A stretch of DNA of 26,478 bases from a virus (lineage: Duplodnaviria; Caudoviricetes): positions 1 to 26,478 of the IMG/VR virus record IMGVR_UViG_3300022867_000061, one strand, 5' to 3'. Of this stretch, positions 4,244 to 21,959 are shown piece by piece. Numbering within the stretch: the first letter of the stretch is position 1; every line of letters begins with the position of its first letter. The notes below the pieces were generated by a model that was given only the letters and a program-made list of their open reading frames with translations, was not told the origin of the DNA and made no database searches. A program made the position numbers and the translations under genes.

Positions 4244-4394
4244 TTAATAGTGAAGTTATCTGATCTAATTTATCGGACTGCTCTTCAACTTTACTTTCTA
4301 AATTCTTTAACCTTACATCATTATTATTACCTAATGCAATAATCTTTTGACCTGTGCTTGCACTAGTTTTGTTTATTAAATTATATGTAGCCAT
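4212..4394 (-). CDS. small coiled-coil protein
   Basis: 60 aa; LKNLESKVEEQSDKLDQITSLL heptads; operon position. Confidence 0.7.
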   Translation of the reverse strand: MATYNLINKTSASTGQKIIALGNNNDVRLKNLESKVEEQSDKLDQITSLLNAISEKTSAS

Positions 4395-4425
4395 AAGTTT
4401 TCTAAATGTTATAAGGGGTGTTATC

Positions 4426-4451
4426 TAAGGGGGATATTACTACCCCCCTTA
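4426..4451 (-). terminator. GC-rich hairpin after capsid/decoration genes (terminator or 3' stabiliser)
   Basis: TAAGGGGG...CCCCCTTA inverted repeat in the intergenic gap; no strong U-tract. Confidence 0.5.
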
Positions 4452-4465
4452 AAGTTATCTATCTA

Positions 4466-4903
4466 TTAGTTATGATCAGTTTCATCGATACCTGATACAT
4501 CACATAGTACTGCCCAAACACGGATTTTACCCGCACTTGAATCTGCACTTAATGCAAGTACATCTAGAGTATCTGCACTAGCAACAACAAGATTAGCTGT
4601 TGCTGTAAGCAGACTATAACCTGCTGCGTTAGTATCACCATCAACAAAGTTATCAACGTCTACACCTGTTATACCTAAGTCCATAGTAACTGAACTTGAT
4701 AATGCAGTAAGTACTTCGATTCCTGCTTGCATGATCAATGTTTCTGCAGGGATATCAAGAGCTTGAACTATATCTCCTGTTGCTGTTCCTGTTGCACCAT
4801 TAATCGCTGCTATGTCGATTGTGTTTTCTACTAAGTAAGGTGTTCTACCATTAGACGGATGTCCTGTAGTACCACCTACTCCTGTTTTGTCGTAAGTTGC
4901 CAT
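4466..4903 (-). CDS. capsid decoration / minor capsid protein
   Basis: 145 aa, beta-rich, directly after MCP, strong AGGAG SD. Confidence 0.65.
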   Translation of the reverse strand: MATYDKTGVGGTTGHPSNGRTPYLVENTIDIAAINGATGTATGDIVQALDIPAETLIMQAGIEVLTALSSSVTMDLGITGVDVDNFVDGDTNAAGYSLLTATANLVVASADTLDVLALSADSSAGKIRVWAVLCDVSGIDETDHN

Positions 4904-6864: not shown

Positions 6865-6895
6865 GTTGAGTGCCTTATGGATAAGGGTAGCTCAC
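6865..6895 (-). promoter_or_regulatory. structured leader hairpin upstream of scaffold SD
   Basis: Minus-strand GUGAG-CUAC-CCUUA-UCCA-UAAGG-CA-CUCAAC stem-loop ending 4 nt before the GAGG SD. Confidence 0.55.
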
Positions 6896-6917
6896 TTCCA
6901 TAATTTGTGGGCTAAAA

Positions 6918-7466
6918 TTATACTAGACCTTGATCTATTGCATCTGTATCTTCTGGCATAGCATTAGGCTCTTGAGCCATCATACCATTAGGATTAGATG
7001 CTTGTACATTTTCAGGTGGCACATTATTGGTATCATCTGATTGTGACTCAGATAATTCTGTAACGAATCCTTGAATGGATTCTTGTTCTGTATTGCTAGG
7101 GTATTTTTTTCTAGCGAAATTCTTTACGACTGATACTGGTAGTATAACGTTTTCTTCAGCAGATGTAAACTGCGATATTACGTCACTAGCTTCAGGTATA
7201 ATTTTTGTTAGTATACTTGAAAGGCTTGGTGATAGTACCATATCTAATTGTTGTTTTTCTTCGTCTGATAAGTTATTTAATTTTTCTATAACAGCAGGAT
7301 CTTTTAATTCTGGCTTCTGTGCTATTGGTGCAACTGCTGCTGGTGCTTTCTGTTCTTGTGGTTGAGCTGGTTGTTTTAAGTTTGACATGTCAGGTGCTTC
7401 AGCTATCTTAGCTGGGCTATTCATTAAACCTGTTGTAGTAACTTCGCCTCCTGGTCCTATTGCCAT
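6918..7466 (-). CDS. acidic, largely disordered putative virion/ejection protein
   Basis: Start re-called to MAIGPGG at 7466 (TAATG overlap with upstream stop); P/Q/E-rich. Confidence 0.65.
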   Translation of the reverse strand: MAIGPGGEVTTTGLMNSPAKIAEAPDMSNLKQPAQPQEQKAPAAVAPIAQKPELKDPAVIEKLNNLSDEEKQQLDMVLSPSLSSILTKIIPEASDVISQFTSAEENVILPVSVVKNFARKKYPSNTEQESIQGFVTELSESQSDDTNNVPPENVQASNPNGMMAQEPNAMPEDTDAIDQGLV

Positions 7467-15242: not shown

Positions 15243-15271
15243 AGTATACACACAAATATAACTTTTGTCAA
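15243..15271 (-). promoter_or_regulatory. sigma70 promoter for the morphogenesis operon
   Basis: TTGACA-17nt-TATACT on the minus strand. Confidence 0.85.
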
Positions 15272-15322
15272 GTACTAATTTAAATTATTTTTATATTAAA
15301 GCATTATTGTTAAAAATAATCA

Positions 15323-15351
15323 TTGACAAAAGGTAGAAGTGGGTGTATAAT
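15323..15351 (+). promoter_or_regulatory. consensus sigma70 promoter facing non-coding DNA
   Basis: TTGACA-17nt-TATAAT. Confidence 0.85.
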
Positions 15352-15816: not shown

Positions 15817-16686
15817 CTATGCAATCTTAGAAATTCTAACCAAAGACTGCTTATTGTGGTCTATAACTTTAAACTCAACAGACTCAATATTTACAATGTT
15901 AGCATTTTTCATACTACCATTTTTATCAAAGTCTTTTAAGTCTCTCTCGTATTGCTCAACTAATCTTAAGCTGAATTGTGCTATCTTTCTCAACTCAACT
16001 ATTTCACTAGTACCATAGTCATTTACTAGATAATCGGCTTTTTTGTTTCTAGTTTGCATCTCAGCATTTAAAAAGTTTTTCATTGTTTTTAAATTGCTTA
16101 ATACAGTCTCATCATTGTTAGGTGTTTGGGCTCCAGTTTTAACAACTGGGCTTATTTTATTCCATAACAATTCAAGCCCACGTGTACTCAAAGGTATTAG
16201 GCTTTCATCATTATTAGGCGTGTATTTAATTTCATTGTTTCCAGAAACTTTTAAGTTTGGATAAATGATATTAGATTGTGCAACTACTAACTTGTCTTTG
16301 ATAATAGCCTTAGTTTTGTCAGTATTAATTAAAACTAATGCTAATTTAACAGCACGAGAAACTAAATTTTCAAAAATATAGTTTCTAATTGGTTTTCCAT
16401 CAGCGTCCTTTTCATTAGGATAGTTAACCAGATTATACAACTTTTCTCTAATTGTAGTTAAATTAAAATAATCAGTTGTTTTTAATTTGTTAGTTTCACA
16501 ATGAGAATTAACTTCGTTGTAAAAATTAACAATCTTTAAACTTAAAGGTTGAATAGCTAAGAAACCAGTTTTTTCAATAGTTTCCGATACTTTCCATAAG
16601 TTTTTAACGTCACCCTCGCACACTTTATAAGCTTTGATACTAGCATAAAAGTCCACAGTTTCTGGTTTTTTTGTTTGTATTGTCAT
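15817..16686 (-). CDS. orphan protein (~289 aa), divergent from the early arm
   Basis: Long ORF; start re-called to MTIQTKK (AAGGA SD); has its own terminator; no recognised family. Confidence 0.8.
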   Translation of the reverse strand: MTIQTKKPETVDFYASIKAYKVCEGDVKNLWKVSETIEKTGFLAIQPLSLKIVNFYNEVNSHCETNKLKTTDYFNLTTIREKLYNLVNYPNEKDADGKPIRNYIFENLVSRAVKLALVLINTDKTKAIIKDKLVVAQSNIIYPNLKVSGNNEIKYTPNNDESLIPLSTRGLELLWNKISPVVKTGAQTPNNDETVLSNLKTMKNFLNAEMQTRNKKADYLVNDYGTSEIVELRKIAQFSLRLVEQYERDLKDFDKNGSMKNANIVNIESVEFKVIDHNKQSLVRISKIA

Positions 16687-16833
16687 TTTATTATCCTTGT
16701 TATGAATACCCAATAAATTTATATTTATTTTTAAAATATCCATATCCCTTTATCGCATTTTTAATAACATACGTCAAATTAATATTACATATATATGTAA
16801 TTAATATTATCTGGTGTCACGTGACACAGCATA

Positions 16834-18783: not shown

Positions 18784-18977
18784 TTGAATTATTATTATTT
18801 TTATTTACTGACTTTGATAATCGTATGGGTAATTTCCATACAGTTAAACATAAGTTTAATACTTATCAAGAATGTAATGACTACATAAAAGAACACACCA
18901 TAGAAGAAAATATATACACACCCACAGGTCAAGTCATAGGTCTTACTTACTGTAAGCCTGTTGACACAGACAAATAA
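18780..18977 (+). CDS. small protein with F.TY.EC...YCKP motif
   Basis: 65 aa; short hydrophobic N-terminus; two Cys. Confidence 0.65.
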   Translation: MIELLLFLFTDFDNRMGNFHTVKHKFNTYQECNDYIKEHTIEENIYTPTGQVIGLTYCKPVDTDK

Positions 18978-19025
18978 ATCATATACTATGTAAGGGTAAT
19001 CAACGAGAGTTGGTTGCCCTTTTTT
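18961..19025 (+). promoter_or_regulatory. promoter-in-terminator cassette 1
   Basis: TTGACA-17-TACTAT, then AAGGGTAATCAAC-GAGA-GTTGGTTGCCCTT and T-run. Confidence 0.8.
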
Positions 19026-19069
19026 GTTGAGCCTAGTCTTTAAGTAACATGGCACTAGATATTAAAGGG

Positions 19070-19160
19070 GGGTGTAGTAATTTACTATGGCTATGTTAGT
19101 AAGGAGTTGTAAATCTAAGCTGTAAATCCAGAACATAGCATGAGAGTTGAGGCTACACCC
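19070..19160 (+). ncRNA. candidate rod-like structured RNA / RNase III-type site
   Basis: GGGTGTAG/CTACACCC outer stem and GCTATGTT/AACATAGC inner stem in a non-coding leader. Confidence 0.5.
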
Positions 19161-19187
19161 TAATACAATTAACTAATAGGAAAATAT

Positions 19188-19601
19188 ATGAAACAAACAG
19201 ACATACAAGTTGGTAAAGTTTCAGATTATCTTTATGCTTTAATGACACAAACCAAAGCGAAAAAGTTTCGTGCAGGTTTTGTTAAAAAAAATGGAGACTA
19301 TCGGACAGGTAGATTTGATTTAGTAAATCGTTCTACTTGGAAACAAACTGATGGCACTATGTATAAACGTAAAGGTAAAGAAAGAACTACCAATGCTGAT
19401 GAGTACATACTAGCACATGACCTAGATAAAAAAGCACCCAGAAATATTTCTGTTGCTACTTTGAAGTGGTTTAGTGTTGGTAAAAAAGTGTATAAAATCA
19501 ATCACTTAGAGGTAAATGATAGCATAACAGTTGTTATGTTTGAGAAGGTAAAATTTACTGCTCTTAAAAATCTAATCAAGCGAGGAGTTATCAATGAGTG
19601 A
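19188..19601 (+). CDS. SH3/Sm-like beta-barrel protein (WYL_2/DUF2693-like)
   Basis: F...FVKKNGDYR....DL...DLDKKAPR motif. Confidence 0.6.
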   Translation: MKQTDIQVGKVSDYLYALMTQTKAKKFRAGFVKKNGDYRTGRFDLVNRSTWKQTDGTMYKRKGKERTTNADEYILAHDLDKKAPRNISVATLKWFSVGKKVYKINHLEVNDSITVVMFEKVKFTALKNLIKRGVINE

Positions 19602-19830
19602 GTGGTGTCAGAATAAAGAATGTTGTTATAAAAGAAATCAGAATCAAATACGTGGTAGTAAAGGCAATAAATATTATCAGTCTAACAAAGTTAATTCTTA
19701 CTACCATGATATAGCCTGTAGTTTAAACTGTTTAAATTCATGGCTTAAAATTAATAGAGAAACTCTTATTAATTCAGTAGGAAGATTGGATAAACAGACT
19801 ATTAAAGCTGAAGACTCTTGGCTTAGCTAG
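19594..19830 (+). CDS. small Cys-rich putative Zn-binding protein
   Basis: GAGGAG SD; CQNKEC...ACSLNC (TRASH-like spacing). Confidence 0.65.
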   Translation: MSEWCQNKECCYKRNQNQIRGSKGNKYYQSNKVNSYYHDIACSLNCLNSWLKINRETLINSVGRLDKQTIKAEDSWLS

Positions 19831-19898
19831 TTGACACAACAATAACATTAGTATATTATATAGGCATCACTCAGACATCTGGGTGGTGTCTTTTTTTT
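19831..19898 (+). promoter_or_regulatory. promoter-in-terminator cassette 2
   Basis: TTGACA-17-TATTAT, then AGGCATCACTCAG-ACAT-CTGGGTGGTGTCT and T8. Confidence 0.85.
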
Positions 19899-19919
19899 AA
19901 CCCAACAAAAGGAGTACTC

Positions 19920-20924
19920 ATGGAACAAAAAGAGATAAGGCTCAATGCAGGTAAACGTAAGTCTTTGACTAACGATTATCGTAGACATTGTGAAAGTCTT
20001 TCAACTGATTTGAAAGATAAATACAATCAAACAAGAGAGGAAGCTACAAGTTCTATTGCTTCTGCGTTTGAAACTGCAACAAAAGTAGTGCAACGTAGAT
20101 TTCCATTAGAAGATGTAGATACTTTGCAACAGTTACAGAGAAAACATAACACTATCAATGCAGTAGGTGATGATAGTTGTTTTTATTTCAAAGTAACTGA
20201 CGCACCAAAGGTACTTGACTCATATGGTGATGAAGTAGAGAAGTCTAAACACTTTTCATTTGAGTTAGATGGCAGTATTACTGGAGATTATGGCTCACGT
20301 TATGGTAGTGGTAGTTCTAACAATGGTAAGAACTTTCCTTATGCTATGTATCGTGAGGAAATGAAAGCAGTAGGACTTAATCCAGACTGTAACATTGAAC
20401 ATGACCTAAAAAAAGAAGGTAATGTCCATAGACAGGACAACAATCCCTACCTGTCAACATGTAGAAATGAGAATGATTACTTTCTAAATGGTAAAACAGG
20501 TGGTAGTAATTTGTATCAAGATTGGAATAGTAATTATGTATTGCAAATTATTGGTACAGGTGGGTGTCGTTCAAGAGCTATCCCATGCTCAGACTTAGAG
20601 TTTCAAAAGTTTGAGATGATGATACAAGCAAAGCAGAATGTAGTGCAGTCACATACTAAATGGATTGAATCTATTGTAGCTAAGGTTAATAGATTTGAGC
20701 AAGGTATAAAGACTATGACTAAGTTCTCTCAAGTAGAGAAGTTTGCTTCTCACAGTAAAGTCAATTGGAAAATTGATGATGAGATACTTGCTGATAAAAT
20801 TGGCATGGACGTTGTAGTATCTATTGATGACCTAGCAGACGCACTAGATAACATAGATAAACCTAAGCAGACTAGAGAAGAAAAGATACTTGCTTATAAA
20901 GAAGCTATGCGAATGGCTAACTAA
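19920..20924 (+). CDS. hypothetical protein (weak Nmad5-like termini)
   Basis: AAGGAG SD; 334 aa; N-terminal IRLNAGKRKSL and helical C-terminus. Family link is tentative. Confidence 0.7.
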   Translation: MEQKEIRLNAGKRKSLTNDYRRHCESLSTDLKDKYNQTREEATSSIASAFETATKVVQRRFPLEDVDTLQQLQRKHNTINAVGDDSCFYFKVTDAPKVLDSYGDEVEKSKHFSFELDGSITGDYGSRYGSGSSNNGKNFPYAMYREEMKAVGLNPDCNIEHDLKKEGNVHRQDNNPYLSTCRNENDYFLNGKTGGSNLYQDWNSNYVLQIIGTGGCRSRAIPCSDLEFQKFEMMIQAKQNVVQSHTKWIESIVAKVNRFEQGIKTMTKFSQVEKFASHSKVNWKIDDEILADKIGMDVVVSIDDLADALDNIDKPKQTREEKILAYKEAMRMAN

Positions 20925-20940
20925 CTATAAGAGATATCAG

Positions 20941-21008
20941 TTGACATACTAGCAATAGTATAGTATATTAAAGGCATTACTAATTAATTTTAGTAGTGCC
21001 TTTTTTTT
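20941..21008 (+). promoter_or_regulatory. promoter-in-terminator cassette 3
   Basis: TTGACA-17-TATATT, then AAGGCATTACTAA...TTAGTAGTGCCTT and T8. Confidence 0.85.
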
Positions 21009-21029
21009 AACCAACAATAAGGAGAAGAT

Positions 21030-21959
21030 ATGAGTGCATTAGTTGCAAAACTAAAAGAACAGTACGCAGACCAGTACCAACATAGCATTACGCCTGTTGA
21101 ACTGCGTCAATTAGACTCAGTAGAGAGTACATTTACGCTAAATAAACCTAGCTATGCTGTATTAGATACTGAAAACAACAAAGCAATACATCTACATGGT
21201 GCTAACTACCAGTTGATACCCTATGAAAGAATATTATCTGGGCTATCTACTGCATTAGATAAGTATGAGATAGATATAAGTGATACATCTATTAAATTTA
21301 ATGTGTCACCAGACTTAAACTACATGAAACTTAGGATTCTGTTTGGAGATACTGGAGATTTTGGTACTTACTCTATGAGTCATGATGAAAATGACAAGTT
21401 AAAGTTTGGTATTGAAGTTATATCTAGCTATGACGCATCAATTATCTATCAGTTAAGGTCAATGTTCTTAAGATTAGTATGTGCAAATGGTATGAAATCA
21501 TTTGAAGATATTAATTCATCTATGAAAAGACATACACTTAACTTTAATCTTGATGATTCATTTACTAAACTAAAGAATCTTAACACAACCTTTAGTGATA
21601 TGAAAAATAAAGTAGAGGTGTACCAAAGTGTAGAGTTAGGTAGACAAGATGTTGAGAAGTTATTTAGAAAGTTCTCTAATAATTCTGATGGTAAGTACCA
21701 CTTACTAAATAATGTATTAGAAACTGATGCAAATAAATCAACACTCTATGATGTGTATAATGCACTAACAAACTACAGTACACACAATGAACGTGCTGTT
21801 AAGATAGGTAAAAGAGATAGTAAAGATTATAAGATTGAATCTGCTAAGAGAGACCCTATAAGAAGTAATGAGGATAGGGATTTTGAAGTTAGAAACTTTC
21901 TAAAGACTAATGACTTTATGTTTTACTATCATCAAGGCGTAGCCAATCAAGTAAGATAA
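21030..21959 (+). CDS. DUF932/DUF945 family protein
   Basis: NYQLIPY, SYDAS, RLVCANGM, RHT, TLYDVYNALTNYSTH motifs. Confidence 0.85.
   Translation: MSALVAKLKEQYADQYQHSITPVELRQLDSVESTFTLNKPSYAVLDTENNKAIHLHGANYQLIPYERILSGLSTALDKYEIDISDTSIKFNVSPDLNYMKLRILFGDTGDFGTYSMSHDENDKLKFGIEVISSYDASIIYQLRSMFLRLVCANGMKSFEDINSSMKRHTLNFNLDDSFTKLKNLNTTFSDMKNKVEVYQSVELGRQDVEKLFRKFSNNSDGKYHLLNNVLETDANKSTLYDVYNALTNYSTHNERAVKIGKRDSKDYKIESAKRDPIRSNEDRDFEVRNFLKTNDFMFYYHQGVANQVR

Follow-up and report, generated by a model that had tools for sequence, protein, structure and literature searches.

Promoter-hairpin cassettes in a pelagiphage-like genome fragment: a probable promoter-in-terminator of fixed register and a leader of exchangeable RNA modules

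Phage promoters fused with a transcription terminator have precedents among the T4-type phages. The accessible passages of PMC2839356 and PMC4122927 describe PeSL cassettes in RB49/phi1, PST/T4 and nt-1/KVP40, in which a near-consensus sigma-70 promoter is joined to a stem-loop that terminates RNA arriving from upstream, and those of PMC2839356 distinguish five subclasses, one of them with the stem-loop downstream of the -10 box. In T4 itself, the promoters of genes e, soc, 49 and I-TevI are located within the 5' strand of a hairpin, according to the available part of PMC3014915. Here, three cassettes that combine a promoter with a hairpin and a T-run are analysed in the viral record IMGVR_UViG_3300022867_000061, a 26.5-kilobase phage fragment (26,478 nucleotides, nt; the whole stretch is called the window). 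The promoter-terminator logic is already known from PeSL and T4 gene e, and the window holds a variant of it with a fixed register; what appears to be new, as read from the sequence, is the re-use of a terminator arm as an RNA scaffold together with the shuffled RNA modules that it frames.

Three TTGACA-17-TAnnnT units are found on the plus strand at 18961, 19831 and 20941, where a preliminary description of this DNA had placed them, and they match 10-11 of the 12 consensus letters with a 17-nt spacer. After a gap of 0-2 nt each -10 box is followed by a hairpin of 13-14 base pairs (bp; terminal A-U pairs counted) and a T-run, and the predicted transcription start (+1), at position 7 after the -10 box (18996 G, 19866 A and 20976 A), falls within the 5' arm every time. 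The stem interiors differ (11, 14 and 20 of 30 letters in common) and pairing is kept. All of this bears out the earlier account, as does the continuation of cassettes 2 and 3 through an A/C-rich leader and a ribosome site to an ATG; overlooked there was that cassette 1 leads into a 166-nt structured leader and not into a ribosome site. Folding z-scores of the hairpins are -4.69, -2.95 and -5.12 for cassettes 1-3. As a class, loose promoter matches are no more frequent than chance (77 vs 79.7), but the combination of promoter and hairpin is above chance: a hairpin of at least 10 bp at offset 0-3 accompanies 3 of the 11 exact TTGACA-17-TAnnnT sites in the window, against 14 of 3000 random early-region positions (binomial ~2e-5, for a geometry chosen post hoc).

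The cassettes share with PeSL the near-consensus sigma-70 promoter, the stem-loop downstream of the -10 box and a setting among small unknown genes of a variable region. PeSL elements carry a ribosome site and start codon at their 3' end, and cassettes 2 and 3 are alike in this, whereas in cassette 1 the leader comes first. The window differs from PeSL in its fixed register, the +1 within the 5' arm, the U-run, the unlikeness of the copies and the phage, which is not T4-like. PeSL copies share a motif of recombination length; the copies in the window do not, with 32-44 of 67 letters in common overall and 11-20 of 30 in the hairpins, and PeSL-like mini-circle joints between cassettes were not seen among contigs from RNA runs, which cannot show their absence. 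Among 47 promoters of phi1, a stem covers the -10 box in 9 and stops at +5 or +7, with no more than 3 T in 8, so that local RNA there would be without a hairpin; a stem starting 0-6 nt after the -10 box is found in only 1 of the 47. Neither a start inside the arm nor re-use of the 3' arm is discussed in the accessible passages of PMC2839356 and PMC4122927. The likeness to T4 gene e is that the fate of an RNA is set by its start, the local RNA lacking the 5' part of the stem; as far as the available description goes, the T4 stem buries a ribosome site, whereas the ribosome sites of the window lie outside the stem and the switch would act on termination and on folding of the scaffold.

Rho-independent terminators have a G-C base, a loop of 4-6 nt and a U-run, and stabilising 5' hairpins have a paired first nucleotide, which hinders decay that depends on the 5' end. 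In ordinary terminators and 5' hairpins these roles are separate; here, one hairpin would serve both, depending on the start. The proposed element consists of a host-type promoter set at a fixed distance before a conserved hairpin and T-run. RNA from upstream would fold the full stem and terminate, and RNA started at position 7, being without the stem base, would escape termination and carry an 8-9-bp hairpin from its first base onwards, a sequence of events that presupposes promoter activity with the host sigma-70 polymerase, the predicted start site, termination, escape and 5'-end protection. For cassettes 2 and 3 a pause without release is predicted, because 11 nt of the local RNA would lie between the stem and the last U. 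The element most likely works in this manner, as a promoter-in-terminator with a fixed register, and the earlier proposal is partly borne out: that upstream RNA stops and local RNA escapes is supported, by comparison of sequences, through the fixed register, the pairing, the switch in terminator score and variants without a stem base. The full stems score +28.6, +34.9 and +25.9 as terminators, and RNA from +1 scores -45.3, -31.2 and -74.4, by a formula built for E. coli, a point against leaning on these values; three ordinary terminators nearby (17487, 17697 and 18700, two of them ending ~20 nt ahead of a -35 box) reach +38 to +52 by the same formula.

The alternative already offered in the preliminary description, that the units make ~30-nt RNAs or are attenuators in need of a phage antiterminator, appears improbable. 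In its favour, the local RNA does retain the U-run and a hairpin of 8-9 bp (-5 to -11 kcal/mol), and an ORF (open reading frame) with likeness to nucleic-acid-binding proteins adjoins cassette 1. Against it, the short stem and the U-run are set apart by 2-3 non-U bases and the terminator score is below zero, relatives drive the same genes with promoters that have no U-run or no cassette, and 38 of 45 leaders have a downstream strand complementary to the U-run, where a helix described below would make use of the U-run.

A search of phage genomes for the same geometry found the register fixed in relatives, with HTVC033P as the one clear case among eight cultured marine phages. In 129 sequences there are 344 distinct promoters, forming 145 clusters; their strongest hairpin lies at offset +2 in 61 cases (8 clusters) and at offsets -4 to +1 in 21, and upstream terminators of the same promoters are scattered from -81 to -35 with at most 10 at any one offset. 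Viral contigs were scanned for a promoter, AG at offset 2 and C followed by T6, with the same pattern at offset 8 as control (48 and 55 of 64 collection parts, respectively); among the matches listed, 45 of 96 distinct hits at offset 2 have a perfect stem of at least 10 bp vs 2 of 82 at offset 8, and the 45 fall into 8 arm families. Of the more distant records, G001 and G002 carry three cassettes each, with other stems, and G005 carries two, while a phage of 52% G+C and another of 41% have a single cassette each. The register is retained where the -10 box is TATAAC or TATAAA, as in HTVC033P. That phage has the fixed geometry clearly (2 of 13 promoter-like sites) and HTVC103P weakly (1/10); it is absent from HMO-2011 (0/13), CRP-3 (0/2), CRP-345 (0/5), HTVC011P (0/2), HTVC023P (0/6) and HTVC027P (0/10). 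Separately, terminators in HTVC033P overlap the -35 box (L024 629 and 1259), which is another PeSL-type geometry in the same phage group.

Compensatory changes, as far as alignments can tell, keep pairs on both sides of the predicted +1. In 28 cassette-2 sequences picked from distinct variants, 99.2% of cells are paired with 54 double changes, and the pair immediately upstream of the +1 is C-G in 18 and U-A in 10; the 26 sequences picked for cassette 1 are 96.4% paired, with double changes at 8 of 13 pairs and unpaired cells mostly in the base. All 48 cassette-2 rows have A at position 7, preceded by C or T (4 of 90 homologs had no promoter call). Stem mismatches are G-U on the plus strand, which argues that the element acts as RNA and tells against the hairpins working as DNA, be it as operators at the start site, cruciforms or PeSL-like recombination joints, with leader variety as neutral shuffling. 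Although relatives diverge at breakpoints located at the -10 end and the U-run, and leader modules move between cassette sites (L044 and L105; L034 twice), the chances of that explanation are slim, given that the three stems have no more than 11-20 of 30 letters in common and that the covariation in the slot-B pseudoknot described below is unexplained by DNA symmetry. Recombination at cassette joints can coexist with a promoter-in-terminator.

The invariant part appears to be the 8-9-bp hairpin from the predicted +1, the base and U-run having been lost in some lineages. Six cassette-1 rows (L087, L089, L093, L094, L080 and L081) have no base and begin their stem at position 7. An upstream terminator was detected in three of them and, by reading, the other three together with L092 and L097 have, immediately ahead of the -35 box, a T-run and a C-rich stretch that ends a longer stem; the same detector found an upstream terminator in 0 of 50 rows with an intact base. 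In L421 and L455 the base, U-run, slot A and spare G (see below) are all gone and a 9-bp hairpin from position 7 is kept. A hairpin from position 7 without a U-run (L092, L093, L421 and L455) would also suit the idea that the hairpins are mainly 5'-end stabilisers, or processing or pause signals, with upstream termination secondary, leaky or lineage-specific, and so would the cassette-2 rows that keep their stem despite a poor U-run and the RNA-run contig that spans cassette 3, both detailed below. This idea is unlikely: the three stems in the window have 6-8 T directly behind a G-C base and score +26 to +35 (ordinary terminators, +38 to +52), and the base upstream of the +1 covaries and is lost where another terminator-like element stands upstream.

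Several observations nevertheless weigh against a promoter-in-terminator. The stems of the window agree with intrinsic terminators in that a stable stem passes directly into a U-run, but 15 of 47 cassette-2 variants do not, having at most 4 T in 8, yet their whole 13-bp stem is intact, whereas the model expects the base upstream of the +1 to decay where the U-run is poor. The earlier claim of a self-insulating module therefore cannot be general, and that of a plain expression module fails for cassette 1, whose product is a long structured leader. Position 7 in cassette 1 is mostly G preceded by G, and in 105 clusters of hairpin-less promoters the frequency of a pyrimidine-purine step is 0.52 at position 7 and 0.54 at position 9, so that this control is indecisive on the start. 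Three of 41 perfect-stem cassette-1 rows begin the stem at offset 4 (L110, L114 and L117). Most offset-2 hits among the matches listed come from one phage group and, the sequences being kin, counts of register and pairing are not independent events. The public RNA runs consist of contigs, which carry no starts, ends or strand; they cover early genes, with uninformative gaps at cassettes, and one contig of RNA run X1 (record 5) spans cassette 3, as fits read-through or DNA carry-over.

The idea that the start decides whether the ribosome site is masked was rejected, the predicted accessibility of the site in upstream and local RNA differing in no consistent direction across 12 cassettes. In ten relatives that lack cassette 1, a short hairpin covering the ribosome site comes after a promoter and has the +1 in its 5' arm, an arrangement like that of T4 gene e (for example L003 247, L004 2121, L031 3569, L069 3623, L104 4945 and L106 4944). 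The ribosome site of the gene behind cassette 2 contains a perfect palindrome (window 19911-19918), with a length across loci of 8 nt in 79 matches, 10 nt in 2 and 12 nt in 5; it lengthens by TA steps and stays self-complementary, in loci that overlap and are not independent.

Table 1. Positions of the cassettes, leader elements and adjoining genes in the window
Feature	Positions	Strand	Remark
Cassette 1 promoter, TTGACA-17-TACTAT	18961..18989	+	stop codon of upstream 65-residue ORF within spacer
Cassette 1 hairpin (18992-19021, 13 bp) and T6 run	18992..19025	+	predicted +1 18996
Helix H1, 9 bp, from predicted +1, freeing C19018-C19019	18996-19017	+	predicted
Helix H2 (19018-19027 with 19059-19068), closing variable slot A	19018..19068	+	predicted
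Slot B: G-rich/C-rich closing stem H3 around pseudoknotted RNA	19069..19161	+	
Slot-B pseudoknot	19080-19085 with 19109-19114	+	
Slot-B P2	19090-19097 with 19132-19139	+	
Slot-B P3	19103-19105 with 19127-19129	+	
137-residue ORF, ortholog of HTVC033P gp10 (76.6%)	19188..19601	+	WYL_2/Sm-like fold a lead
78-residue ORF, no known family	19594..19830	+	stop codon abuts cassette 2 -35 box
Cassette 2 promoter, TTGACA-17-TATTAT	19831..19859	+	
Cassette 2 hairpin (19862-19891, 13 bp including 3 G-U) and T8 run	19862..19898	+	predicted +1 19866
A/C-rich leader and ribosome site of 334-residue ORF	19899..19919	+	
334-residue ORF, ortholog of HTVC033P gp12 (71.7%)	19920..20924	+	no known family
Cassette 3 promoter, TTGACA-17-TATATT	20941..20969	+	
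Cassette 3 hairpin (20970-21003, 14 bp) and T8 run	20970..21008	+	predicted +1 20976
A/C-rich leader and ribosome site of DUF932 gene	21009..21029	+	
DUF932 protein (PF06067, E 3.7e-11, above cut-off)	21030..21959	+	

Behind cassette 1, the 166 nt between the U-run and the 137-residue ORF hold no called gene, and in relatives the frame of this leader stays constant while two slots within it vary. By prediction, the local RNA would fold into three helices that abut one another, H1, H2 and H3 (Table 1), and would present two interchangeable structured RNA domains before the WYL_2-like gene. The two C freed by H1 and the U-run would be re-used as one strand of H2, which would be complete only in RNA started at +1, upstream RNA holding the freed C in the terminator base; when the window RNA is folded from 18996, these C and the U-run pair with the strand just before the slot-B stem. 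A survey of 53 leaders detected a module in 45, and in 37 of these the G-run has exactly 2 G beyond what the slot-B stem needs. The two spare G match the two freed C, which points to a start at position 7 and to read-through, and because H2 needs the freed C the fixed register would have a second reason beyond escape. The first four positions of H2 are complementary in 38 of the 45 leaders, the next two are mostly unpaired and the four after that are complementary in 36-41, and the predicted fold from +1 keeps the H2 pairs in 36 leaders. At one position the pair is G-C in 21, G-U in 5 and A-U in 5 of 31 leaders, and L080, L081 and L091 have different H2 strands that are again complementary. 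Against this stand 8 of the 45 leaders without 2 spare G (three of them hold two modules, of which the second was scored); moreover, with kin sequences, H2 is one conserved design seen many times and not a set of independent events.

There were 49 distinct leaders of more than 20 nt, and in 44 of them slots could be delimited, which were grouped into families by shared 10-mers. The result was 22 families for slot A (empty or short in 5 leaders) and 27 for slot B, and the slots reassort, each of the 8 multi-member slot-B families occurring with 2 to 6 different slot-A partners. Folding of the leaders is slightly more stable than that of shuffles, at a median z-score of -1.72, with 22 of 51 below -2 and the leader of the window at -0.6. 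A view of the slots as spacers copied from phages was dropped, since the only meaningful matches of the window's leader are to HTVC023P and HTVC033P, as homologous structure. Palindromes as restriction-site decoys were likewise rejected as a general feature (68 six-mers vs 72.4 +/- 8.3 in shuffles of 51 leaders). In some slot families, 6-nt palindromes are swapped by double changes, even at the centre (L055/L058/L060/L123, L034/L008, L098/L099 and L080/L081), a hint of RNA dimer contacts. A structured insert of 80-170 nt can follow cassette 2 as well (L004 3018, L006 29, L026 485, L028 743 and L044 4763) or a cassette of the more distant lineages (L379 7991, L381 and L384), and some of these inserts belong to slot-B families; at L379 8894, in a distant lineage, a freed CC and U-run folds onto a downstream AAGG around a tiny slot.

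Slot B of the window matches an intergenic stretch of HTVC023P, a phage of a different pelagiphage group, at 76.7% over 86 nt. Scans with a pattern that included one strand of the pseudoknot and not its partner returned 24 viral and 34 metagenome stretches in 30 distinct contexts, before at least 7 unrelated ORFs; the match in L424 looks like a chance hit. In 18 chosen variants, 94.7% of cells are paired. Double changes affect 8 of 8 pairs of the inner 8-bp helix and 3 pairs of the 6-bp pseudoknot, which is 100% paired; the 3-bp helix is invariant and thus uninformative on covariation. No Rfam 15 family reached its gathering threshold on this RNA, and Rfam gave no backing to a suspected resemblance of the core to small self-cleaving ribozymes. 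The RNA model has no copy in HMO-2011, CRP-3, CRP-345, HTVC103P or HTVC011P, and only close copies in 80 loci. In HTVC023P (L395), intergenic direct repeats of ~35-50 nt stand at 6880-7130 and 4373-4567, upstream of the pseudoknot RNA and in front of gp23.

At least 7 unrelated ORFs lie behind one and the same pseudoknot, and a single ORF has any of 27 different module families in front of it or no module at all; for this reason the slot domains most likely work as RNAs in their own right and not as control of the next gene. They would be produced immediately after infection and serve as aptamers or decoys towards host factors, although this is the weakest step of the argument. A more far-reaching and rather doubtful reading is that SAR11 phages keep an RNA arsenal, in which a three-helix scaffold formed only upon local start would display two exchanged RNAs, handled by a WYL_2/Sm-like protein and used against host factors; dozens of families would be traded between cassette sites and unrelated pelagiphage groups, and the displayed RNAs would be decoys, aptamers or ribozymes. 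If true, the arsenal would be the RNA counterpart of hypervariable early anti-defence proteins. The leader is in any case a non-coding slot system under apparent diversifying pressure in an abundant pelagiphage group, with dozens of short uncatalogued RNA structures, one of which has clear pseudoknot covariation, and it lets one ask if variable RNAs, like variable proteins, are weapons of phages against their hosts. With its 65 nt the cassette is a small natural part that would insulate, restart and stabilise, and natural variants separate these three roles; HTVC033P on HTCC1062 offers a cultured phage-host pair with both cassette 1 and cassette 2.

The protein encoded behind the leader has no Pfam match at cut-off, but 54% of its Atlas cluster carry WYL_2 (PF10902) and its model (pLDDT 79) resembles viral WYL/DUF2693 proteins (E 7e-4 to 3e-3) and, weakly, BrxR, CapW (E ~0.1) and Hfq. 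That it binds the leader is a guess from adjacency and predicted fold; the gene lacks the leader in ten relatives, and the pseudoknot is also found where the gene is absent. For the 334-residue protein, a distant homolog in HTVC027P (29.7%) was found, and its Atlas likeness to ADP-ribosyltransferase-like clusters (score below 0.9) is a lead only.

The literature searches retrieved no description of the promoter-hairpin element or of a re-used arm and shuffled modules, and the passages of PMC12379486, PMC10204088 and PMC10914365 consulted contain nothing on the element. The words promoter, terminator and non-coding have 0 occurrences in the accessible text of PMC9038755. Candidate phage structured RNAs, including short covarying intergenic RNAs in marine phages, are presented in the available part of PMC10690425, and 41 table rows in its supplement name Pelagibacteraceae; single slot modules may be among its unnamed candidates.

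Judged by its capsid protein (78.5% identical to that of pelagiphage HTVC033P) and by early-gene synteny with that phage, including the gp10 and gp12 orthologs at 19188 and 19920, the window appears to derive from an HMO-2011-type phage near HTVC033P, and this kinship suggests a SAR11 host. A group-specific DNA polymerase is a feature of HMO-2011-type phages; the record ends within a primase-like gene. The HTVC033P-type group is reported among the most abundant pelagiphages in the accessible part of PMC9038755. One contig of the window's phage group (L385) sits in a Winogradskyella metagenome bin, where it is probably misbinned. Late genes (terminase, portal, capsid and tail) are on the minus strand, and the plus-strand early region, with small unknown ORFs and many exact TTGACA-17 promoters, starts at ~16900. 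Antisense to the early region runs an AT-rich ORF of 308 residues with no known family (15817-16743, minus strand). Divergent promoters stand at the boundary of late and early genes (15243-15351; 12 of 12 consensus letters on the plus strand and 11 of 12 on the minus strand), followed by ~450 nt with G-runs and C-runs and no clear gene, and the layout is similar in G001 and G002.

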